A DNA stretch of 64,000 nucleotides, from positions 104,423 through 168,422 of the forward strand of contig JBAXAJ010000001.1 of the NCBI GenBank assembly GCA_037142555.1, in the 5' to 3' direction. Origin of the DNA: Candidatus Shapirobacteria bacterium (lineage in GTDB: Bacteria; Patescibacteriota; Microgenomatia; UBA12405). The notes beneath the pieces were generated by a model. That model was not told where the DNA came from. It ran no database searches and was given only the letters and a program-made list of their open reading frames with translations. Both the position numbers and the translations under genes were made by a program. Below, in pieces: positions 32,300 through 64,000 of this stretch (the stretch's first letter is position 1; each line of letters opens with the position of its first letter).

Positions 32300-32710
32300 A
32301 TGGTTAAAAAAACTAATTTAAATAAATACACTTACGCAGTTGGTCGACGTAAATCAGCCATTGCTACTATTAAACTTTTCCCAGGAAAAGGTGATTCATT
32401 AGTCAATAAAATGGCTGTTGATAAATACTTCCCAGGTGCTACCGACAAGATTAACTATAATAAACCTTTTGTGATTACTGAAACTCTTGGTAAGTTCTAT
32501 TTCGAAGCCAAAGTCATCGGTGGTGGAAAACAAGGTCAAGTTGAATCTTTGATGTTAGCAACTTCCAGAGCTCTTTTTAAACAAAATGAAACTCTTAAAC
32601 CAGTTTTAAGACAAGCAGGACTATTAACTGTCGATTCACGAGTCAGAGAAAGAAGAATGGTTGGAACCGGTGGAAAATCTCGCCGACAAAAACAATCTCC
32701 AAAGCGTTAA
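32300..32710 (+). CDS. rpsI: 30S ribosomal protein S9
   Basis: C-terminal …GGKSRRQKQSPKR S9 signature. ATG at 32300 follows the rplM stop at 32293-32295; the 32252 start in the ORF track is an overcall. Confidence 0.9.
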   Translation: MVKKTNLNKYTYAVGRRKSAIATIKLFPGKGDSLVNKMAVDKYFPGATDKINYNKPFVITETLGKFYFEAKVIGGGKQGQVESLMLATSRALFKQNETLKPVLRQAGLLTVDSRVRERRMVGTGGKSRRQKQSPKR

Positions 32711-32732
32711 GCAATATATTTTGTCTTTCCAA

Positions 32733-32760
32733 ATCCCTCACTCCTGTGGGGGATTTTTGT
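32733..32760 (+). terminator. Rho-independent terminator at the end of the ribosomal super-operon
   Basis: atccctcac-tcct-gtgggggat 9-bp stem followed by ttttgtttt. Confidence 0.65.
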
Positions 32761-32767
32761 TTTCTCT

Positions 32768-32830
32768 TATTGACAATATTTTCTATAATGTCTATCTTTA
32801 AATAACATTTAATATTTTATTTAAAAATAG
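32768..32830 (+). promoter_or_regulatory. Conserved upstream element (copy 1 of 3) with TTGACA and a TTAAATaacATTTAA palindrome
   Basis: Near-identical ~60-bp elements precede genes A, C and D; the palindrome lies at 32798-32812. Confidence 0.55.
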
Positions 32831-33796
32831 ATGAAAACATCCTCAATCGCCAAATTTTTAGTAGTAGCTCTAGTTCTAGGAGCTGGTGTGACCTTTGGAA
32901 CTCAAATGGTTCAAAAGAACCAAGAAAACCGAAGTCAAGCATTTGTTCCAGTAGCTGTTTGGGGATTAATATTAGTAGGAGATGCGATAGCTACTTGGAT
33001 TGCCACTCACCCAGATGCAACTCAGGCAATCGGTGAAGCAGCTTCTGAGACAGCGGGAGGAGTAGTGGATCTTTTAGACGATCCTGCAAATCCAGAGAGA
33101 CAAAGAATAATTGATGCAAATGCAGCAGCTTTAAAGTGTCCTGCTGGTTCAAAATATGAATGTCCTCCACTCACTTCACGGGGCGAAGGACCACCATGTG
33201 GTTGCAATAATAATGGTACTTGGACTCCAGTCTTAGTTAAAAAAGATGGTAAGTGTAGTACTAAAAATTATAATACTTGTGAATATGGTGCTGTTTATGA
33301 TAATTTAAAAGACACTACAACACAAGTTCTATGGCAATGTAAGGGTTCTGTTGGTGGCCAAACTGATTTTTGTACTGCGAACAAACCAAAAATCAATGGT
33401 ATTTGTTCTACAACAAAAAATAAATGTACTAAAGGAAAATATTCAGAACTTAAAGACACTGAAGATTATTATTATTGGATGTGTAATGGCACAGCCAATG
33501 GAACATCAGCTAAGTGTCATTCTTCAAAACCTAATAAAGTCAATGGCATTTGTTCAAACACAAAATATTCTTGTTCTAGCGGGACAGTAGTTAATAAAGT
33601 TGACACTACAATTGCCTACAAATGGAGCTGTAAAGGATCTAATGGTGGAAGCCAAACTCCTTGTGATGTAGATAAGCCTGGTGCTTGTGGTAAAACAAAG
33701 AATTCATGTTCTGCTGGTAAGTGGACTGATGTCACTGACACCACAGCTGCTTATAAATGGAAATGTGCAAATATTATTTGTAGTCTTAAAAAATGA
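32831..33796 (+). CDS. Secreted/membrane-anchored cysteine-rich repeat protein, paralog A (321 aa)
   Basis: N-terminal MK..IAKFLVVALVLGAGV.FGTQMVQKNQENRS module shared with B-D. The C-terminus carries repeated C-x5-C-x2-GK(Y/W)-x5-DT-x3-YKWKC modules. The stop overlaps the B start (ATGA). Confidence 0.8.
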   Translation: MKTSSIAKFLVVALVLGAGVTFGTQMVQKNQENRSQAFVPVAVWGLILVGDAIATWIATHPDATQAIGEAASETAGGVVDLLDDPANPERQRIIDANAAALKCPAGSKYECPPLTSRGEGPPCGCNNNGTWTPVLVKKDGKCSTKNYNTCEYGAVYDNLKDTTTQVLWQCKGSVGGQTDFCTANKPKINGICSTTKNKCTKGKYSELKDTEDYYYWMCNGTANGTSAKCHSSKPNKVNGICSNTKYSCSSGTVVNKVDTTIAYKWSCKGSNGGSQTPCDVDKPGACGKTKNSCSAGKWTDVTDTTAAYKWKCANIICSLKK

Positions 33797-34644
33797 AAAA
33801 ATTTAAAATAGCCAAATTTCTTGTAATAGCTTTAGTTCTAGGAGGAGGTCTTTTTTATGGAACCCAAATGGTTCAAAAAAATCAAGAAAACAGAAGTAAT
33901 GCTGCCGGGGGAGCTTTGGTAGCTGAAGGTATCGGAAAATTAGTTGCACCTTACGCAAAAGAGGCAATAAAGGGGTTAAAAGGTAATGACCCAATGCCAA
34001 CAGAAATTTATAAAAGTGGCACTGCTGTATGTGGTTTAAAAAGTTCATGTGAATCTGGGACATATGCACCTTTCTCTAGTGATGATAAGGAAATAAAATG
34101 GACTTGTCAAAAAGGTACTGGACTTAAGCTATTATGCAAGTATATAAAACCTAAAGTTGATGGTCTCTGTTCCACAGATAGAAATAAATGTAGGGCAGGA
34201 ACATTTAAAGAGTCTAAAGACAGTGAAGACCACTATTATTGGCTTTGTGAAGGAATAAATGGTGGATCATCACCATTATGTAATAAACCCAAACTAGTTT
34301 CTCGTGGTGGCACCGACAGACCAATCAAAGGTGTTTGTGGCGAAACAAAAAATTCATGTTCTACTGGTAAGTGGTCTGAAACCACTGACACCACAACTGC
34401 TTATAAATGGAAATGCAATACAACAGTTTGTTTAAAAGACAAAGCTCCTCTATGTGGTGTTTATGCTTTTGATGGTAAACCTATCAAAACAGCTTCTTGT
34501 TATGTTGGTAGTTTAGACAGACCAAACTTCGGACTAGCAATTTATGATGTCACTATTAATGGTAAAAAATATAAAGCATGGTATTGTAAAAACGGTAGTA
34601 GTAAAGTTTCCTGCACAAACAAAACGCCTGTCATAAACTATTAA
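33793..34644 (+). CDS. Cysteine-rich repeat protein, paralog B (283 aa)
   Basis: Shared N-terminal module; the C-terminal ~80 aa are near-identical to C at the DNA level. Confidence 0.8.
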   Translation: MKKFKIAKFLVIALVLGGGLFYGTQMVQKNQENRSNAAGGALVAEGIGKLVAPYAKEAIKGLKGNDPMPTEIYKSGTAVCGLKSSCESGTYAPFSSDDKEIKWTCQKGTGLKLLCKYIKPKVDGLCSTDRNKCRAGTFKESKDSEDHYYWLCEGINGGSSPLCNKPKLVSRGGTDRPIKGVCGETKNSCSTGKWSETTDTTTAYKWKCNTTVCLKDKAPLCGVYAFDGKPIKTASCYVGSLDRPNFGLAIYDVTINGKKYKAWYCKNGSSKVSCTNKTPVINY

Positions 34645-34685
34645 ATTCAAATTTTTTCCAAAAACAAAGCTTATTTACACTAATC

Positions 34686-34748
34686 ATTGACAAAGTTTCA
34701 AATTATATCTATCTTTAAATAACATTTAACAATCTTATTTAAAAATAT
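34686..34748 (+). promoter_or_regulatory. Conserved upstream element (copy 2) with the palindrome at 34715-34729
   Basis: ttgacaaagtttcaaattatatctatctttaaataacatttaacaatcttatttaaaaatat, about 90% identical to copy 3. Confidence 0.55.
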
Positions 34749-35606
34749 ATGAAAAAACTAGGAATAGCCAAATTTTTGGTCATAGCCTTAGTTCTAGGTG
34801 GTGGATTAATTTATGGAACCCAAATGGTTCAAAAGAACCAAGAAAATAGAAGCAAAGCCGCTGAATATGGTAAAACATATAATAATGGAGATGTTATTTG
34901 TGGTGTATCTATACCAGCTGATTGGAGAGGATTAGCAAAATGGAAGCTTCCAAGTGAAATATCTGACGCGGCTGTTGATGAATTTGAAAATGCAGTTTTT
35001 AAATGTAACAAAGATAAATGTACTTTCTCAACTGATTCTATAGGTGACTGGCAATATCTTGAATTTTGTGGCCCAGTTGCAAATACTAGGAAATCTTGCC
35101 AAGAAATAAATGGAGTTAATGCTTCTTGTAAAAATATTGAGGGTGCTTGTGCTTCTAAATTAAATACTTGTCAAAATGGAAAGTTTAAAGATACTGCTGA
35201 CACTCCAACTGAATATAAATGGAATTGTGAAGGAGTTTCAATTTTAGGTGGTACCACAAGTGGTACCACAGCATCTTGTTCTATAAAAAAACAAGTTTGT
35301 GGTGCCAACAGAAATACTTGTAAAATTGGTAAATATTCAAAACTGGATGACACTAACAACCAATATAAATGGAAATGCAATACAACAGTTTGTTTAAAAG
35401 ACAAAGCTCCTCTATGTGGTGTTTATGCTTTTGATGGTAAACCTATCAAAACAGCTTCTTGTTATGTTGGTAGTTTAGACAGACCAAACTTCGGACTAGC
35501 AATTTATGATGTCACTATTAATGGTAAAAAATATAAAGCATGGTATTGTAAAAACGGTAGTAGTAAAGTTTCCTGCACAAACAAAACACCATCTATAAAC
35601 TATTAA
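34749..35606 (+). CDS. Cysteine-rich repeat protein, paralog C (285 aa)
   Basis: Shared N-terminal module, a different middle region, and a C-terminus shared with B. Confidence 0.8.
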   Translation: MKKLGIAKFLVIALVLGGGLIYGTQMVQKNQENRSKAAEYGKTYNNGDVICGVSIPADWRGLAKWKLPSEISDAAVDEFENAVFKCNKDKCTFSTDSIGDWQYLEFCGPVANTRKSCQEINGVNASCKNIEGACASKLNTCQNGKFKDTADTPTEYKWNCEGVSILGGTTSGTTASCSIKKQVCGANRNTCKIGKYSKLDDTNNQYKWKCNTTVCLKDKAPLCGVYAFDGKPIKTASCYVGSLDRPNFGLAIYDVTINGKKYKAWYCKNGSSKVSCTNKTPSINY

Positions 35607-35685
35607 ATTAAAATTTTTTCCAGAAAAAACTGAAATTATTATTCTTTCGAATATTTAACATCAGTCATTGTTTCTTTTGCTAATA

Positions 35686-35747
35686 ATTGACAAAGTTTCA
35701 AATTATATATATCTTTAAATAACATTTAACAAATTTATTTAAAAAAA
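35686..35747 (+). promoter_or_regulatory. Conserved upstream element (copy 3) with the palindrome at 35715-35729; an A8 tract directly abuts the ATG
   Basis: ttgacaaagtttcaaattatatatatctttaaataacatttaacaaatttatttaaaaaaaatg. Confidence 0.55.
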
Positions 35748-36632
35748 ATGAAAAAATTAGGAATAGCAAAATTTTTAGTAATGGCTCTAGTTCTAGGCGG
35801 TGGATTAATTTATGGAACTCAAATGGTTCAAAAGAACCAAGAGAACAGAAGTAAAGCCGCTAATGAAATTACAACACAAGATGGACCCTGTGGTTCTACT
35901 GCTAATGTATGTCTTGATGGGAGACCTGCAACTAACATAACTTCAGACGCTGTTAAGAACAACTGGAAATGCCCATATAATGGAGGATTCGCTAGTTGTG
36001 TATTAATTAAACCAGGTGAATGTGGCACTAAAGCATATGGTGATTGTGTTGCTGGAAAATATCAAAATATAAATGGCACTAACACTCAATGGAAATGTGC
36101 TAATGTTACTTGCTCTATCCCAAAAACTGCAATACCAAAAGGACCTTGCGGTTCTACTGCTAATGTATGTCTTAATGGTGGATCTGCAACCAACATAACT
36201 TCAGATGCTGTTAAGAGCAACTGGAAATGCCCATATAATGGAGGATTAGCTAGTTGTATTTTAATTAAACCAGGTAAATGTGGTACTAAGTCGTATGGTG
36301 ATTGTATTAGTGGAACATATCAAAATATAAATGGCACTAACACTCAATGGAAATGTGCTAATGTTACTTGCTCTATGCCAAAAGTAGTTACAGCACCAAA
36401 AGGACCTTGTAGTACTACTGCCAATAAATGTGTTGATGGGAGACCTGCAACCAACATAACTTCAGATGCTGTTAAGAACAACTGGAAATGCCCATATAAT
36501 GGAGGATTCGCTAGTTGTATTTTAATTAAACCAGGCGAATGTGGCATTAAATATGGTAATTGTATTAGTGGAAAATTTGAAAAAATAAACGACATTCAGT
36601 GGAAATGTGCTAATGTTACTTGCTCTCTTTAA
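35748..36632 (+). CDS. Cysteine-rich repeat protein, paralog D (294 aa), built from three ~87-aa tandem repeats
   Basis: Shared N-terminal module. PKGPCGSTANVC…NWKCPYNGG…QWKCANVTCS is repeated three times with ~90% DNA identity. Confidence 0.8.
   Translation: MKKLGIAKFLVMALVLGGGLIYGTQMVQKNQENRSKAANEITTQDGPCGSTANVCLDGRPATNITSDAVKNNWKCPYNGGFASCVLIKPGECGTKAYGDCVAGKYQNINGTNTQWKCANVTCSIPKTAIPKGPCGSTANVCLNGGSATNITSDAVKSNWKCPYNGGLASCILIKPGKCGTKSYGDCISGTYQNINGTNTQWKCANVTCSMPKVVTAPKGPCSTTANKCVDGRPATNITSDAVKNNWKCPYNGGFASCILIKPGECGIKYGNCISGKFEKINDIQWKCANVTCSL
35880..36632 (+). repeat. Three tandem ~260-bp repeats inside paralog D
   Basis: 35883-36140, 36141-36407 and 36408-36629 align base by base with few substitutions. 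Confidence 0.8.
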
Positions 36633-36658
36633 AAACAATAAATACTTTGTCTATTCAA

Positions 36659-36693
36659 ATCCCTTCCCTCCACTATGGGAGGGGATTTTTGTT
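36659..36693 (+). terminator. Rho-independent terminator after the cysteine-rich cluster
   Basis: atcccttccctcc-acta-tgggaggggat followed by ttttgttt; its sequence resembles the terminator at 32733. Confidence 0.55.
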
Positions 36694-36716
36694 TAATTTA
36701 TTGTTAAAATAATTCT

Positions 36717-37466
36717 ATGACTTTAATCCAATCAATCATTTTAAGTATAGTTCAAGGCATATCTGAATTTTTGCCAATTTCATCATCTGGTCATTTAAAC
36801 CTTTTTCAGTATCTTTTTAATCTCCAACCATCCTTAACTTTAGACATTTTTCTCAATACTGCCACTTTTGTTTCAGTTTTGTTTTTTTTCAGAAAACAAC
36901 TAAACTATTTTTTTAAAAATCTAAAATACATCATTGTTGCTTCAATTCCAGCTGCTCTAGTCGGAATTTTCCTAAAAGATCAAGTTGAATCAATTTTTGC
37001 CGACATAAATTTATTACCATCTTTCTTCCTAATCACCGCCGCTCTCGTCTTTTCTACAAAATATTTAAATGGTAAATCTCAAAAATTAGACTACAAAAAA
37101 GCTTTGGTTATTGGATTTTTTCAAGCCATAGCCATTCTTCCAGCAATTTCTCGTTCTGGAGCCACCATTTTTGCTGCTCTTTTACTAGGCTTAGCGCCTA
37201 TAGAAGCGTTCAAATTCTCTTTTTGCTTATTCATTCCAGCTTCACTTGGAGCTTTGCTTTTAAGTGCTAAAGATCTCAAGGGCGCTAATTTTTTTGAACC
37301 AAACTATTTAATTGCTTTTGTAGTCACTACAATTGTCGGGATAATCGCTCTAAATATTCTTCAAAAAGTATTAATTGGTAAAAAACTTTGGATTTTTGGA
37401 TTTTACACTCTAATCATTGCCATTGTTACTTTCATCCTCTTAACATTCACCGGTTCTGCCGTTTAA
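36717..37466 (+). CDS. uppP: Undecaprenyl-diphosphatase
   Basis: GISEFLPISSSGHL signature and a PAISRSGATI second motif; 249 aa membrane protein. Confidence 0.85.
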   Translation: MTLIQSIILSIVQGISEFLPISSSGHLNLFQYLFNLQPSLTLDIFLNTATFVSVLFFFRKQLNYFFKNLKYIIVASIPAALVGIFLKDQVESIFADINLLPSFFLITAALVFSTKYLNGKSQKLDYKKALVIGFFQAIAILPAISRSGATIFAALLLGLAPIEAFKFSFCLFIPASLGALLLSAKDLKGANFFEPNYLIAFVVTTIVGIIALNILQKVLIGKKLWIFGFYTLIIAIVTFILLTFTGSAV

Positions 37467-44281: not shown

Positions 44282-47200
44282 TTGTCTAAAAATTTGATCA
44301 AGTTTAGGTTCAAATTACCAATAAAGAAAAAAGTTTCAGACTATTTTTTTGCGCCTCGTTTTTACTTCTCCAGATTTCAGTTTAATTTAATCGCTGTTTT
44401 ATTCATCAGCATCGGTCTTGCCACTGGGACTTATTTAACCATGTCCAAAGTGATTTTACCTTCAATCTTCGCTGTGTCTCAAACTTCCAACACCCTAAAT
44501 TTTGATGTCGGCAGTTCTGGTAATTATAATTATGACACCTCCTCAGTCACTATTGGTGCCAGTGGTGTCCAACCAATAGCAACCAACAAATTTTCTAATT
44601 CTAGTTTCGCCACTAATAGTGTTGGTTGGACTTCAGATATCATAGTTCCAAATGGTTATGTCAAAGTTCCTGGAAATTCAACTTTTAGTACTACTGATTT
44701 TGCTGTTATGAAATATGAAGCTAAATGTGCTTCCACAAGTGACCCTGCTACTGGTTTAACAAGTCCTACTTTTATACCATTTTATACTTATAAAAATAAT
44801 GTAGATGATTGTATTTCAGCTAATAATAAGCAAGTAGTTTCAGTAGCTAATGGATATCCAATTGCCTTAATTACTCAGCCTGATGCAATCACCAAATGTG
44901 CCAGTGTTTCTGTTTCCGGTGCCACTGCTCATTTAATTAATAATAATGAATGGATGACTATTGCCAGAAATGCTGAAGCTCAAAACACCAATTGGTCTCT
45001 AGGCGCTGTTGGTTCTGGTTATTTATATGCCGGTAATAATAACATTGATACAAGTTACTCTCATTATATTTACAATGCATCGACTAATGATACAGGTAAT
45101 TATCGTTGTGCTTACACTAACACTGGTTCTTCAGACAATCCATCTCCTTGTCCTTATAACACAGCTCAAAATACTTCTGGAACTAGGGGAAGTCAAGTCA
45201 GAGTTTTAAAATTATCAAATAATGAATCAATTTGGGATATGGCGGGAAATGTTGGAGAGTGGATTAATAATACTCAAACAGGCACAACTATAGGCCCTAG
45301 TAGTATTTTAGAGTGGAATTCTTCTAGCCTTGCTTCTGGAGCTAGAGATCTTTATGGGCCATCAAGCTCTTCATATCTTAAAGCCCAGGGAATGGGGTCT
45401 TTCACTGGTGGTGCTTTGGGTAATGTTTTTATGCGTGGAGGTATTTATCTTGACTCTTTAGATGCTGGTATTTATAGTTTAAGTTTAAGTTCTAGTTCTT
45501 CTTATTTATATCCTGGAATTGGTTTTCGTTGTGCCATTTCTGGTAATGTTTTATCACAAGTATCAAATGTTGGTTTAGGAGCAAGTGGAGCTGCAAAAAT
45601 TATTGCTAATCCTGGATCAGATTCTAAGATTTATCAGACAATGGCCAATCTTACTACCAATTCTACTTACGACTTTTCCGCCTATGTTTATAATAATACT
45701 GCTGGTGGTATTGGTGGCACAGTCAATGCTTCTATTGCTCAACTAGAATATAATGGAGTTGGAATTACTACTACCTACACTAATTCAGGTTCAGGTTGGT
45801 GGAAACTTTCCGCCACCGTCACTGCGGCCAGTGGCTCACAAGAATTTGGTCTTCTAACCAAAGCCGGCAAAACAGTCTTTTCTGATAATTTTAGTTTAAT
45901 TCCTATTATTTCTCCTATCTACACCACCACTTCTTTTTATAATCGTCAAATTATGGAATGGAGCTCTTTTAGTGCAGTTGGCACTACTTTTGCCACTTCT
46001 CCAATTACTTATCAACTTTGTTCAACCGATGCTTCTATTTGTGAAAGTAGTAATACTTGGCAATATTGGAATGTCTCCAGTTCCACTTGGTCCAACGCCA
46101 CCAATCTCACTATGACTAATACTGCCGGAGATATAAATACTCATATCAGCACTTTCCCTGTCACCAACAAAAAAATTGCTGTCAAAATCATTATGACTTA
46201 TGATGGCACCAATGTTCCAACTCTTAGTTCCATTAATTATGGTTTTAAAATTGATAATCTTGCTCCAGTGACTAATGCTTCAAGTGTAATAATGAATTCT
46301 TCAATCGGCTTAACTTGGGCTAACACAAATCCATCTTTTACTTGGACAGCTGCCACAGATGATGATCCAAGTGCTTCAGGAATAAAGGGCTACTGTCTAT
46401 CTTTATCCACTACCACCGGTGGTGTCGATCCAGTTTCTTCAAAAGGCAAACTAGGCACTTCTCCAGTCCCTATTTCTGATAATATTTGTCAATTTATTGT
46501 TCCTTCAAATTCTCTAAATTTAAATACCGCTGGCTATTTAGCCTCGGCATTACTTGATTCTGAAGAAACTTATTATTTAAACATTAAAGCTATTGATAAT
46601 GTAAACAATGTTTTCCCTACTTCAACTTATTTTGAGTTCAAATATGACTCTACTAAACCTAGAAATGTCTCTTATATTTCTCCAGCTTCTGGCAATTTTT
46701 CCAATGTCGTTGATATGAGTTTTTCTTGGCCAATCAGTGTTGGTAGTAGTGTATCTTCATCAGATAGTGGCAGTGGAATTTTGGGTTGGCAATACCAAAT
46801 AAATACTAATGATGCTGATAAATGGCAAGGAAGCACTACGGCTCCAGAATTAGGTGGCCTAAAATATATTCCTAGTGGCACTTCTAGTTATAGCCTAGTT
46901 GAAGGTAAAGATGCTATTGTTTCCGGAAACAATGTTATTTACTTCAGAACTGTCGATAAAGCCGGCAATTTTTCTACCGATGCTACTATTCGCACTGGTA
47001 ATATTGCTTTTGGTGGTGCGGCTCCTGCTTTCAACCAAAATAATAGTGTCACTATCAATCCTAATACTTCTACAACTAATTCTTTTGCTCTGTCTTGGCC
47101 AAGTGCCACTGCTACTAATGGTCAAAGTGTCACTAATTATTACTATATGTTAAACACTCCACCACCATCAACTTTAGCCACTCTACAGGGTAATATTTCA

Positions 47201-48904
47201 ACCTATATCAACAATGGCACTGCAACCACAGTTGCTGTCAAAAGTCTTCCAAATGTCAACAAAGGTACTAATACTGTCTATGTTGTTGCAGTCGATAGTG
47301 CCAACAATTATTCACCATCAAATTACACTAGTGGTACTTTTGTTCTAGATTCCAATACTCCCGACAATGTCAGCAATTTAGTTTCTTCTGATTCTTCAAT
47401 CAAATCTCAATCTCAATGGAATATTACTCTTACTTGGACCGCTCCAATCTATCAAGGTGCTGGCAATTTAATTTATCAAGTCTATCGATCAACCGATGGT
47501 GTTAATTTTGCTCAAGTTGGTTCTTCTACTGGCCTTTCCTATGTCGATAATACTCCAGCTTCAAGCAAATATTATTACAAAGTCTATACCAAAGATGGTG
47601 CCAATGCGGTCTCTTCTGGTACTAATGCTGTTTCTATTACTCCAACTGGTAAATGGACTACTTCTCCAATTATTGATTCCCAACCAACTACTTCTTCAGT
47701 AACTACCAAAAAAGCTACTGTCAATTGGTCTACTGACCGAAAAGCCGATTCTAAAATTGCTTTTGGAACTAAATCTGGCAGTTATAATACCGAAGAACCA
47801 AGTAATCCAACTCAAGTTTCCAGTCATTCCATTAATCTTACCGGTCTTTCTCCAGGAACCACTTATTATTATCGGGCCAAGTGGACAGATGAAGACGGAA
47901 ACACAGGAACCAGTGATGAAAAATCTTTCACCACTGCCGCTGCTCCAACAGTTAAAGATGTTTTAGTCAAAAATGTTAATCTAAGTTCAGCTTTAGTCCA
48001 GTTCACTTCAACTGGAGCTAGTAAAGTCAAGGTTTATTATGGCACCAGCACCGCTTTTGGCGGAGCCCTAGAAATTCATACTTCAACTTCTGAAGCTACT
48101 TATACAGTCAACTTAATTGGTTTACTCGATGGCACAAAATATTATTACAAAATAAATGCTTTTGACAGTGAATCTAGTGAATATGAAGGCACAGTTCTAG
48201 ATTTCACCACTATTCCAAGACCAAAAATTTCTAGCGTTCAACTCCAAGAAGTAGCTGGAACTTCTCAATCTACAATTTTAGTCACTTGGAACACTAACAC
48301 CGAAATTTCTTCAATTGTCACTTATTATCCAGAAGGTAAGCCAGAACAATCTCGAGATGAAGTCAGTATCCAATCAATCAAAGGCCAACACAAAATGATT
48401 CTTCGAGGCTTCACTCCTGAAACTAACTACATTTTAGTTGTTAAAGGTCGTGACAAAATTGGCAATGAAGCAGTTTCTGATAATCATCATTTCACCACTG
48501 CCACCGACACCAGACCACCACAAATTTCTAGTCTACTAGTTGAAGGTCAAAATGTTCCAACAGTTTCTGGTGCTGCTCAAGAATCAACAGCTCAATTAAT
48601 CGTTTCTTGGAACACTGATGAACCAGCCACTTCTCAAGTTGAATTTAGTGAGGGAACTGGTGCCACTTATTCTCAAAAAACTCAAGAAGATGCAAAACTT
48701 ACCTACAACCATCTAGTCATTATTTCTGGTCTAACAGCTTCAAAAGTCTATCACTTGAAAGCAATTTCCAGAGATAAAGCCAATAACACTGGTAAATCAA
48801 TTGACACTGTCACTATCACTCCAAAAGCCACTGATAATGCTCTAAACTTAGTTGTTTCCAATCTAGGCCAAGTATTTGGTTTCTTAGGAGGATTTAATAA
48901 ATAA
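44282..48904 (+). CDS. Giant membrane-anchored surface protein (1540 aa): N-terminal TM, FGE-sulfatase (SUMF1-like) domain, Ig/FN3-like repeat array
   Basis: TM helix LIAVLFISIGLATGTYLTM. IWDMAGNVGEW and …YLYPGIGFRCAISG match the formylglycine-generating-enzyme fold signature. The C-terminal half holds ~100-aa FN3-like repeats (…TVNWSTD…TYYYRAKWTDEDGNTG…). The TTG start is uncertain. Confidence 0.7.
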   Translation: MSKNLIKFRFKLPIKKKVSDYFFAPRFYFSRFQFNLIAVLFISIGLATGTYLTMSKVILPSIFAVSQTSNTLNFDVGSSGNYNYDTSSVTIGASGVQPIATNKFSNSSFATNSVGWTSDIIVPNGYVKVPGNSTFSTTDFAVMKYEAKCASTSDPATGLTSPTFIPFYTYKNNVDDCISANNKQVVSVANGYPIALITQPDAITKCASVSVSGATAHLINNNEWMTIARNAEAQNTNWSLGAVGSGYLYAGNNNIDTSYSHYIYNASTNDTGNYRCAYTNTGSSDNPSPCPYNTAQNTSGTRGSQVRVLKLSNNESIWDMAGNVGEWINNTQTGTTIGPSSILEWNSSSLASGARDLYGPSSSSYLKAQGMGSFTGGALGNVFMRGGIYLDSLDAGIYSLSLSSSSSYLYPGIGFRCAISGNVLSQVSNVGLGASGAAKIIANPGSDSKIYQTMANLTTNSTYDFSAYVYNNTAGGIGGTVNASIAQLEYNGVGITTTYTNSGSGWWKLSATVTAASGSQEFGLLTKAGKTVFSDNFSLIPIISPIYTTTSFYNRQIMEWSSFSAVGTTFATSPITYQLCSTDASICESSNTWQYWNVSSSTWSNATNLTMTNTAGDINTHISTFPVTNKKIAVKIIMTYDGTNVPTLSSINYGFKIDNLAPVTNASSVIMNSSIGLTWANTNPSFTWTAATDDDPSASGIKGYCLSLSTTTGGVDPVSSKGKLGTSPVPISDNICQFIVPSNSLNLNTAGYLASALLDSEETYYLNIKAIDNVNNVFPTSTYFEFKYDSTKPRNVSYISPASGNFSNVVDMSFSWPISVGSSVSSSDSGSGILGWQYQINTNDADKWQGSTTAPELGGLKYIPSGTSSYSLVEGKDAIVSGNNVIYFRTVDKAGNFSTDATIRTGNIAFGGAAPAFNQNNSVTINPNTSTTNSFALSWPSATATNGQSVTNYYYMLNTPPPSTLATLQGNISTYINNGTATTVAVKSLPNVNKGTNTVYVVAVDSANNYSPSNYTSGTFVLDSNTPDNVSNLVSSDSSIKSQSQWNITLTWTAPIYQGAGNLIYQVYRSTDGVNFAQVGSSTGLSYVDNTPASSKYYYKVYTKDGANAVSSGTNAVSITPTGKWTTSPIIDSQPTTSSVTTKKATVNWSTDRKADSKIAFGTKSGSYNTEEPSNPTQVSSHSINLTGLSPGTTYYYRAKWTDEDGNTGTSDEKSFTTAAAPTVKDVLVKNVNLSSALVQFTSTGASKVKVYYGTSTAFGGALEIHTSTSEATYTVNLIGLLDGTKYYYKINAFDSESSEYEGTVLDFTTIPRPKISSVQLQEVAGTSQSTILVTWNTNTEISSIVTYYPEGKPEQSRDEVSIQSIKGQHKMILRGFTPETNYILVVKGRDKIGNEAVSDNHHFTTATDTRPPQISSLLVEGQNVPTVSGAAQESTAQLIVSWNTDEPATSQVEFSEGTGATYSQKTQEDAKLTYNHLVIISGLTASKVYHLKAISRDKANNTGKSIDTVTITPKATDNALNLVVSNLGQVFGFLGGFNK

Positions 48905-62996: not shown

Positions 62997-64000
62997 ATGA
63001 ATCAATTGCAAATCATTTTAAAATCAAAAAAAATCATTGAAAGGGGAATAATCGAAGCCGATTTTCTAGAATTATTATTAACCAATCGTGGCATCACCAA
63101 ATCCAAAACAGCTGAATTTTTAAAACCAAACAATCCCAAAAAACTTGAAGCCAAAGATTTTGGAGTCAACCAAAAACAATTAGATTTGGCTGTCAATCGA
63201 ATTAAACAAGCCATCGATAATCAAGAAAATGTCCTAATATACGGCGATTATGATGTTGATGGTATAACTTCAACTGCTGTTCTTTGGAAATCTCTAAGAA
63301 AAAATGGTCTAAAAGTCATGCCTTTCATTCCCGATCGAGAACACGACGGCTACGGCATCAAAGCCAAATCATTTTTTAAGTTTGAAGAGGAAAGAGCCAC
63401 TAAATTCTCTTTATTAATCACTGTCGATAACGGCATTGTCGCCAACAAAGAAATCCAAAAAATCATCGACACTGGGGTTGATGTAATCATCACCGATCAC
63501 CACCTTCCAACCGAATCTTTGCCAAATTGTCTTGCCTGCGTCCATTCAACTGCCTTTTCTGGTTGTACTCTAGCCTGGCTTCTAGCTCTTCAATTCGATT
63601 CTGAAGCTGATCTAGGATTGGCCGCTCTCGGTGCCATTGCTGACTGTATGCCTCTAGTTGGGATCAATCGCAGCATTGTGGTCCATGGCATCCAAGAATT
63701 AAGATTAAACCCTTCTCCAGGCATGAAAAAATTAATGCAAGTCAGTGGTTCTAAACAAGAATCACTTTCTGCTTATGATCTAGGCTACATTCTTGGCCCT
63801 CGAATCAACGCTGTTGGTCGTCTTTCCAACCCAACCGATGCTCTGCGACTTCTATGCAGTCCAACTCTGGTCCAAGCCGCCAAATATGCCCAAGTTCTAG
63901 ACGATCACAACAAAGACCGTCAAATTCTTCAAAAAGACAGTTTGGAAGTTGCTGAGAAAAATATTTTCAACAACTCCGACAAATTAGTCTTTATTGCTGA
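62997..64000 (+). CDS. recJ: Single-stranded-DNA-specific exonuclease RecJ (3' end lies outside the window)
   Basis: DHH-family motifs VLIYGDYDVDGITS, …DNG… and ITDHH; the frame stays open to the window end. It is not in the ORF track because there is no stop. Confidence 0.8.
   Translation, partial: MNQLQIILKSKKIIERGIIEADFLELLLTNRGITKSKTAEFLKPNNPKKLEAKDFGVNQKQLDLAVNRIKQAIDNQENVLIYGDYDVDGITSTAVLWKSLRKNGLKVMPFIPDREHDGYGIKAKSFFKFEEERATKFSLLITVDNGIVANKEIQKIIDTGVDVIITDHHLPTESLPNCLACVHSTAFSGCTLAWLLALQFDSEADLGLAALGAIADCMPLVGINRSIVVHGIQELRLNPSPGMKKLMQVSGSKQESLSAYDLGYILGPRINAVGRLSNPTDALRLLCSPTLVQAAKYAQVLDDHNKDRQILQKDSLEVAEKNIFNNSDKLVFIA

Follow-up and report, generated by a model that had tools for sequence, protein, structure and literature searches.

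A tandem family of cysteine-rich, probably exported repeat proteins in a Candidatus Shapirobacteria genome

The 64-kb stretch of DNA analysed here (the window) belongs to a metagenome-assembled genome (MAG) of Candidatus Shapirobacteria, an uncultured and probably symbiotic bacterium of the candidate phyla radiation (CPR, or Patescibacteria) and not a mollicute. Between positions 32831 and 36632 it carries four consecutive intact open reading frames (ORFs) on the + strand, which we call A, B, C and D and which are annotated as hypothetical proteins WCG91_00775 to _00790. We propose, with a probability of roughly 0.6, that A–D are binding proteins of the cell surface or the extracellular space, exported through Sec, held by disulfide bonds and diversified through duplication and gene conversion. 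The N-terminal domain would take each protein across the membrane by the Sec route and would then be either cut after an RS-x-A motif or retained, holding the protein in the membrane as a single-pass anchor. Outside the cell, the remainder would form a string of three to six small all-beta modules, each locked by four cysteines, probably in two disulfides, and this string would make a rigid, multivalent rod suitable for binding a surface, whether the envelope of the bacterium itself or that of its host cell. A with B, C and D would be transcribed from three copies of one strong promoter and leader. Diversity would arise from tandem duplication, gain and loss of modules, and homologous recombination or gene conversion, with the conserved blocks (the promoter with the N-terminal module, and the shared 3' module) possibly acting as homology arms. 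The sequence shows the anatomy of the block, the relations within the family, the insertion, footprints of recombination and the lack of lipoprotein and switch features; export, disulfide bonds, the fate of the signal and the binding function are inferred from it.

The four ORFs, their coordinates and the ATGA overlap that joins A and B are as described in an earlier note on this DNA (Table 1). Cysteine makes up 5.7–8.2% of the four proteins, with an even number in each, against about 0–2% (mostly ≤1.5%) in the other proteins of the window; for D we count 24 cysteines where about 30 had been reported. The C-termini read ...CSLKK (A), ...PVINY (B), ...PSINY (C) and ...TCSL (D). Neither an LPXTG motif nor a C-terminal hydrophobic segment is present in A–D, which thus do not have the features of sortase-anchored surface proteins. 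B, C and D have one N-terminal hydrophobic segment after a basic tip and no other anchor; only A contains a second hydrophobic stretch (FVPVAVWGLILVGDAIATWIA, residues 38–59, window 32942–33010), which directly follows the proposed cleavage site and is itself followed by an acidic linker. A search with full-length A matched only the window's own genes and two Logan proteins, so that the family is narrow at the whole-protein level.

The first 37 residues are common to A–D (76–97% amino-acid identity between pairs), and 23 positions are invariant across six members, namely A–D and two relatives. This module consists of a basic tip (MKK), a hydrophobic helix of about 15 residues (FLVIALVLGGGLIYG) and a juxtamembrane QMVQKNQENRS-x-A segment. 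The earlier note was right about the shared module, except that the start MKK(L/F)(G/K) which it gave for all four genes fails for A, which begins MKTSS. It had also described the module as equally identical at the nucleotide level, where the copies are in fact only 77–89% identical, with mostly synonymous differences. Over codons 2–37 the paralogs differ by 0.57–1.2 synonymous substitutions per site (dS) and by 0.01–0.17 non-synonymous ones (dN); C and D, for instance, are separated by 11 synonymous changes and a single non-synonymous one. Synonymous positions within the motif also vary freely among relatives. The high dS and low dN therefore indicate that the conservation comes from selection on the peptide and not from recent homogenization. 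As a side observation, the Lys codon in QKNQ is often AAG in family members, compared with about 9% of the Lys codons in the housekeeping genes of the window; this choice possibly avoids a slippery A7 run (CAA AAA AAT), a run that B does carry.

The same module, which in relatives reads K-F-G-I-(A/G)-K-F-L-V-M-A-L-V-L-G-G-G-L-(I/V)-Y-G-x-Q-M-V-Q-K-N-Q-E-N-R-S-x-A, heads at least five other types of Cys-rich body in related metagenomic and MAG loci. The genes concerned are singletons or tandem sets of two or three and lie at two other genomic sites, one between frr and rseP and the other after a homologue of the DHH-family gene that ends the window (62997–64000, running off the end). In the related loci L003, L008 and L012 a gene with this N-terminal module and a Cys-rich body stands directly after the DHH-family homologue and before aspS, so that a further family member may lie just beyond the end of the window. 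The core motif [LMIV]VQ-x1-2-QENRS-x-A was found in 29 distinct N-termini of the collected related loci, in every case behind a hydrophobic stretch and at a distance of 13–45 residues from the start; in the form (L/M)VQxNQENRSxA it also heads proteins of 560–1010 residues with dockerin or cohesin domains. When the N-terminal module alone was used as a homology query, 46 candidates shared words with it and none reached E ≤ 10, probably owing to the correction for hydrophobic bias.

Several of the other bodies found behind this module deserve mention in their own right. Those of L003, L011, L013 and L017 (for example L011 904–1584) include C-T-S-x-x-Y-S-x-W-S-x-C-x-x-G-x-x-T-R...P-S-G-C repeats, which are reminiscent of thrombospondin type 1 repeats, and a six-Cys unit, C-S-x-I-G-G-K-C-G-D-F...C-C-A-P, with one or two copies per protein. 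Beside family members in related CPR genomes there is moreover a cellulosome-like surface set (L005 4591–12268, L006 4345–12008 and L011 3402–7107). It comprises Cys-rich proteins of 630–1010 residues that end in dockerin type I repeats, several of them with the four-Cys module described below, together with small proteins that have a cohesin domain, one of them LPXTG-anchored, and one protein combining cohesin and Big_2 domains. Every checked member of the set starts with the (L/M)VQxNQENRSxA motif.

What happens to the N-terminal domain after export can be approached from its distal end. With small residues at −3 and −1, the S-x-A at residues 35–37 agrees with what signal peptidase I requires, and family members cease to resemble one another precisely beyond RS-x-A(A); both suggest, as far as sequence can, cleavage after residue 37. 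Alternatively, the first 37–45 residues or so could form a dedicated CPR sorting or processing domain, read by a specific peptidase or assembly factor, which would route varied Cys-rich cargo to a single destination, as do LPXTG, PEP-CTERM, eukaryotic RXLR and conotoxin-superfamily signals. We regard this as possible but doubtful, and it is compatible with the Sec-exported binding proteins proposed above rather than exclusive of them. It would account for a motif that does not vary between paralogs or between species, although both the cargo and the synonymous sites do, and that heads at least six unrelated body types, including dockerin proteins of 600–1000 residues; the exact limit of similarity after RS-x-A(A) also speaks for it, as does the absence of QENRS from the other exported-looking proteins of the window. 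Yet RS-x-A is what an ordinary signal peptidase I site would look like, no candidate processing enzyme is linked to the genes, whose neighbours are housekeeping genes, and neither NCBIfam nor Pfam holds a model with which to compare the domain. In relatives, family members stand beside the M50 protease gene rseP, a conceivable processing partner that we set aside because insertion into the usual frr...rseP gene order is the simpler explanation. In the window itself, a predicted exported protein of 1540 residues (44282–48904), with a purple-acid-phosphatase N-terminal-like domain and fn3 domains, has no QENRS motif, which is thus not universal among the exported proteins of this organism.

The helix could also be taken for a class III signal, cut by a PilD-type peptidase after the Gly before IAKFLV, in which case it would assemble into a fibre bearing the Cys-rich domains. 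CPR bacteria are rich in type IV pili, relatives mostly read K-F-G-I-(A/G)-K-F-L-V after a basic leader, and the larger motif-bearing proteins start K-G-(F/I)-(A/S)-Q, loosely like K-G-F-T-L-I-E. However, A has Ser and B has Lys before IAKFLV, where only C and D have Gly; Glu is missing at +5, the Pfam N_methyl domain does not match even at E ≤ 1, and the most conserved element lies after the helix, unlike in pilins. The lack of Gly and Glu led us to reject prepilin-type processing, and a pilin-like nature of A–D is very improbable.

Beyond the N-terminal domain, the four proteins are not built from unrelated C-terminal regions, as had been thought, but are all arrays of one four-Cys module. 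Fifteen segments of A–D align as a unit of about 40 residues with invariant C, C, G, W, C and C and the pattern C-x5-6-C-x2-G-x12-16-W-x-C-x3-16-C, and the 55 C-terminal residues that B has in common with C can be aligned with it as a long variant. This makes 15 short and two long copies in total, three in C, four each in A and B and six in D. The Cys-module repeats and internal tandem repeats of the earlier note are thereby borne out, the latter as the three 258-nt units of D. Its remark that D is rich in N-x-S/T sequons stands as a count (eight, compared with 4.1 ± 1.8 in shuffled sequences, A–C being at expectation) and carries no statistical weight for glycosylation, since the excess comes from the triplication of one repeat unit.

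A single module is predicted by AlphaFold2 to be a three-stranded beta unit (predicted local distance difference test, pLDDT, 81.5), and residues 138–321 of A are predicted to form four all-beta beads (pLDDT 83.7); in this model the predicted template modelling score (pTM) of 0.44 suggests that the modules are independent beads. When the 15-copy module profile (A1) was run exhaustively with HMMER against 1.84 billion cluster representatives, 926 proteins scored E ≤ 1e-3, of which 311 reached E ≤ 1e-10; the number of copies in one protein goes up to 45 and protein length up to 3421 residues. The canonical unit of these carriers, visible in P0007, P0012, P0058 and others, is (V/I)(N/D)G-x-CG-x3-N-x-C-x2-G-x5-6-D(T/S)-x-T-x-Y-x-W-x-C-x-G-x-NGG-x4-C. 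Its partner domains include RCC1 repeats, leucine-rich repeats with subtilase, dockerin and fn3, all typical of extracellular contexts. The module also extends beyond CPR bacteria, to judge from some carriers encoded on contigs of 3.6–5.5 Mb and from one cluster with the label Acidimicrobiales.

In agreement with the earlier note, the module corresponds to no named domain: nothing above threshold was found in Pfam or NCBIfam for A–D or for canonical relatives. In the PDB, a sequence search gave no match to the module profile and one chance-level match (E = 0.49) to the canonical relative P0058, while Foldseek gave best E values of 0.36 against the PDB and 0.03 against BFVD. Sushi/CCP, fibronectin type I and EGF domains are likewise all-beta units of about 40 residues with four cysteines and conserved Trp and Gly, arranged in tandem in extracellular proteins, but the module of A–D differs from them in Cys spacing and Trp position and matches no solved structure. 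With about 900 clusters and no Pfam, NCBIfam or PDB counterpart, it appears to be undescribed in the libraries and papers searched.

A conserved signal followed by diversifying disulfide-rich bodies is also the hallmark of secreted toxins and antimicrobial effectors of the conotoxin or fungal-effector type, in which the signal is cleaved and the Cys-rich mature protein is released against hosts or competitors. In conotoxin superfamilies and small secreted Cys-rich effectors, as here, the signal is far more conserved than the mature region, Cys frameworks are kept while loops vary, and genes are duplicated in tandem. The missing C-terminal anchor, the relaxed dN/dS of 0.57 between repeats 1 and 2 of D, and the accessory positions of the family, which vary between genomes, would all suit such a role. 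We nevertheless consider it unlikely. Those families are eukaryotic and their members mostly short and single-domain, whereas A–D are bacterial and their mature proteins of 246–284 residues (around 250) are built from several modules, an architecture of adhesins or matrix proteins rather than of compact toxins. Elsewhere the four-Cys module builds surface-type proteins of 1000–3400 residues, and nothing in A–D indicates toxicity: no similarity to any toxin family was found in the Pfam, NCBIfam, PDB and Foldseek searches, and no immunity or export partner genes stand beside A–D, whose neighbours are housekeeping genes.

Expression of the family seems to rely on a repeated element. A conserved upstream element was said to precede C and D, which is correct; it is a promoter-like sequence with an AT-rich leader, and a third copy lies before A (Table 1). 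Three copies of its 21-nt core CTATCTTTAAATAACATTTAA (32792–32812 before A) are present in the 64-kb window, where 0.05 would be expected, and a promoter and leader of similar build precede family members in related loci. With three copies of one strong promoter and leader, serving A and B, C, and D, the genes are probably all expressed together and not switched.

This bears on the comparison with the phase-variable lipoproteins of Mollicutes (Vsp, Vpma, Vlp), in which promoter inversion or slippage in a homopolymer turns on one gene of the array at a time, giving a product with a lipid anchor on its N-terminal Cys. The likeness that the earlier note saw is real as regards architecture: a tandem family with a conserved 5' untranslated and signal region and variable bodies built of repeats, with segments common to paralogs, resembles the vsp and vpma loci (PMC2268961). 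It does not extend to mechanism or membership. Vsp/Vpma systems are defined by a lipobox, a recombinase acting on sites in the 5' untranslated region with DNA inversions, and a single active promoter (PMC2268961). A–D, by contrast, have no lipobox (for example AAKC; [LVI][ASTVIG][GAS]C is absent from their first 45 residues), and their first Cys is at residue 103, 80, 51 and 48 in A, B, C and D, respectively. There are no inverted repeats in 32700–36720 and no invertible DNA, and no recombinase, integrase or transposase domain was detected by Pfam in the scanned ORFs of the window, let alone in an adjacent gene. Three intact, equivalent promoters take the place of one, and all four genes are co-oriented. 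The spacers contain no long homopolymer, the A-run before the ATG being located in the leader and not between −35 and −10. Finally, the bodies are Cys-rich and the organism is a CPR bacterium, of a different phylum. That A–D are lipoproteins of this type is hardly credible.

The Sec-exported binding proteins that we favour would instead diversify by recombination, and footprints of this are present in the locus. The 3' ends of B and C are perfectly identical over 224 nt (Table 1), a duplicated segment that had already been noticed. This identity is good evidence of recombination and points to a duplication or a gene-conversion event of recent date. The last module of A also resembles the third of B, with 88% nucleotide identity. 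Metagenome assemblies break at the 224-nt tract: of two contigs from sample ERZ27300156 that are 100% identical to the window, L001 ends inside the B copy of the tract and L018 begins shortly ahead of D, within the 3' end of C. A third contig, L002 (1767 nt, sample ERZ27300174), is 99.5% identical to the window over A and B; past the shared tract it continues with a spacer of the C–D type and a D-type signal-coding region, joined near codons 25–38 to a C-type body. Such a mosaic is the pattern expected of gene conversion between homology blocks and is suggestive of recombination between strains. A perfect 16-nt palindrome, TGGTTCAAAAGAACCA, is found inside the MVQKNQ codons of A, C and D (32907–32922, 34825–34840 and 35824–35839) and of the mosaic gene of L002, within its breakpoint interval. 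It was considered as a recombination or RNA element and rejected as a conserved one, since neither B nor any relative has it and the synonymous sites of the relatives are free to vary. An Rfam scan of the locus gave nothing near the gathering score.

The term hypervariable was an overstatement: two of the three assemblies match the window at 100%, and the third matches it at 99.5% apart from its mosaic tract. The signs of recombination among paralogs that the earlier note anticipated are nonetheless there, in the B/C tract and in the combination of D-type upstream region and C-type body in another sample. Its broader picture also agrees with our results, namely a multigene family with a conserved expression and export module and variable mosaic repeat bodies in a reduced, probably host-associated genome, here that of the CPR Shapirobacteria MAG. 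Neither of the two outcomes that it had named as contrary to its proposal, a domain with a housekeeping role and an invariant locus, was found.

Several points weigh against the proposed Sec export and diversification by gene conversion. The 14 residues between the hydrophobic core and the proposed cut are long for a Sec signal. Such strong conservation of helix and motif is unusual for a disposable signal and better fits a retained anchor or a dedicated recognition site. The stretch at residues 38–59 of A would, if inserted into the membrane, reverse the topology of the protein. As to recombination, the population comparison comprises three assemblies only, and L002, a short MEGAHIT contig of 1.8 kb, could for that reason be a chimera formed within the assembly of its sample.

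The position of the block in the genome also speaks of variability. It is flanked by the rpoA-rplQ-rplM-rpsI operon on the left and by uppP on the right, with a terminator-like hairpin at either border (Table 1); in relatives, the hairpin equivalent to the left one has uppP directly next to it. In five syntenic Shapirobacteria contigs (UppP 70–74% identical) the rpsI–uppP junction contains no genes like A–D, rpsI being followed either directly by uppP or by one unrelated small minus-strand ORF. The number of A–D-type genes at this site is thus four in the window genome and zero in five of five relatives, a copy-number difference of the kind foreseen in the earlier note, and on this comparative evidence the 3.9-kb block is an accessory insertion, specific to this lineage, at a junction between operons that is prone to vary. 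The junction is a variable spot in Shapirobacteria in other respects as well: the small minus-strand ORFs differ between relatives and have no Pfam match, and other junctions are empty.

Table 1. Coordinates of the features of the four-gene block and its surroundings (window positions unless a related contig is named).
Feature	Coordinates	Strand	Remarks
Terminator-like hairpin, left border	32731..32756	+	Ends the rpoA-rplQ-rplM-rpsI operon
Promoter/leader, copy 1	32770..32830	+	Upstream of A; promoter-like TTGACA-17-TATCTT with AT-rich leader of ~32 nt
Gene A	32831-33796	+	321 aa, 20 Cys; N-terminal module, second hydrophobic stretch (aa 38-59), acidic linker, 4-Cys region, four 4-Cys modules
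Gene A, N-terminal module	32831-32941	+	Codons 1-37
Gene A, 4-Cys modules	33248-33376, 33398-33520, 33545-33667, 33680-33784	+	
Gene B	33793-34644	+	283 aa, 16 Cys; N-terminal module, three short modules and one long variant
Gene B, short modules	34024-34140, 34162-34284, 34330-34434	+	
Gene B, long-variant module	34450-34614	+	
Tract of perfect identity between 3' ends of B and C	34402..34625 = 35364..35587	+	224 nt
Promoter/leader, copy 2	34687..34748	+	Upstream of C
Gene C	34749-35606	+	285 aa, 18 Cys; N-terminal module, unique 6-Cys region (aa 38-130)
Gene C, short modules	35139-35282, 35292-35396	+	
Gene C, long-variant module	35412-35576	+	
Promoter/leader, copy 3	35687..35747	+	Upstream of D
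Gene D	35748-36632	+	294 aa, 24 Cys; N-terminal module and six modules
Gene D, three tandem 258-nt units	35866-36626	+	Each unit is one longer and one shorter module
Terminator-like hairpin, right border	36657..36688	+	After D
uppP	36717-37466		Next gene beyond the right-border hairpin
Small unrelated ORFs at the rpsI–uppP junction of relatives	L021 6439-6825, L022 135-506, L023 513-818, L024 6434-6832	-	

A–D belong to a known kind of protein, the Cys-rich extracellular proteins already reported in CPR bacteria. The closest description concerns the Peribacteria, also of the CPR, in which strain-variable clusters of such proteins, for which a role in attachment was proposed, contain about 6–8% Cys, have predicted signal peptides and carry no functional annotation (Anantharaman et al., 2016; PMC4736985). 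Those proteins are large, however, with a mean of about 1655 residues compared with 283–321 in A–D, and show weak similarity to Myxococcus Cys-rich repeats (PMC4736985). Judged by description, A–D are set apart from them by a different, uncatalogued four-Cys module and by a near-invariant N-terminal domain and promoter. CPR bacteria are also enriched in MdbA-like and VKOR disulfide machinery (10.1101/335083), which is consistent with disulfide bonding in A–D. Both the compact four-gene cassette and the reuse of a near-invariant N-terminal domain on many types of cargo appear to be new with respect to the libraries and papers searched.

CPR bacteria make up much of bacterial diversity, and most of them live in attachment to another cell; to our knowledge, the molecules that mediate this attachment are almost unknown. 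The locus offers a compact and tractable example, four proteins of about 300 residues, of the Cys-rich extracellular proteins of these organisms, and it defines a widespread repeat module absent from domain and structure databases. A more far-reaching interpretation, which we put forward tentatively and consider rather less than probable, is that two undescribed building blocks of the CPR surface meet here. One would be an N-terminal sorting domain (basic tip, helix and (L/M)VQ(K/Q)NQENRS-x-A) marking Cys-rich proteins, from singletons of 110 residues to dockerin proteins of 1000, for dedicated processing or anchoring; the other would be a new four-Cys extracellular repeat fold present in about 900 clusters across bacteria, and the tandem genes would be rapidly recombining cassettes that tune the attachment of an episymbiont to its host. 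The near-invariant motif could serve to tag the exported or surface Cys-rich proteome of Shapirobacteria-like CPR bacteria for mining. The most interesting point is whether or not it is a dedicated sorting signal: if it is a lineage-typical Sec signal, it would provide a useful but ordinary annotation, and if it is a dedicated one, it would represent a new N-terminal class of bacterial protein-sorting signals.

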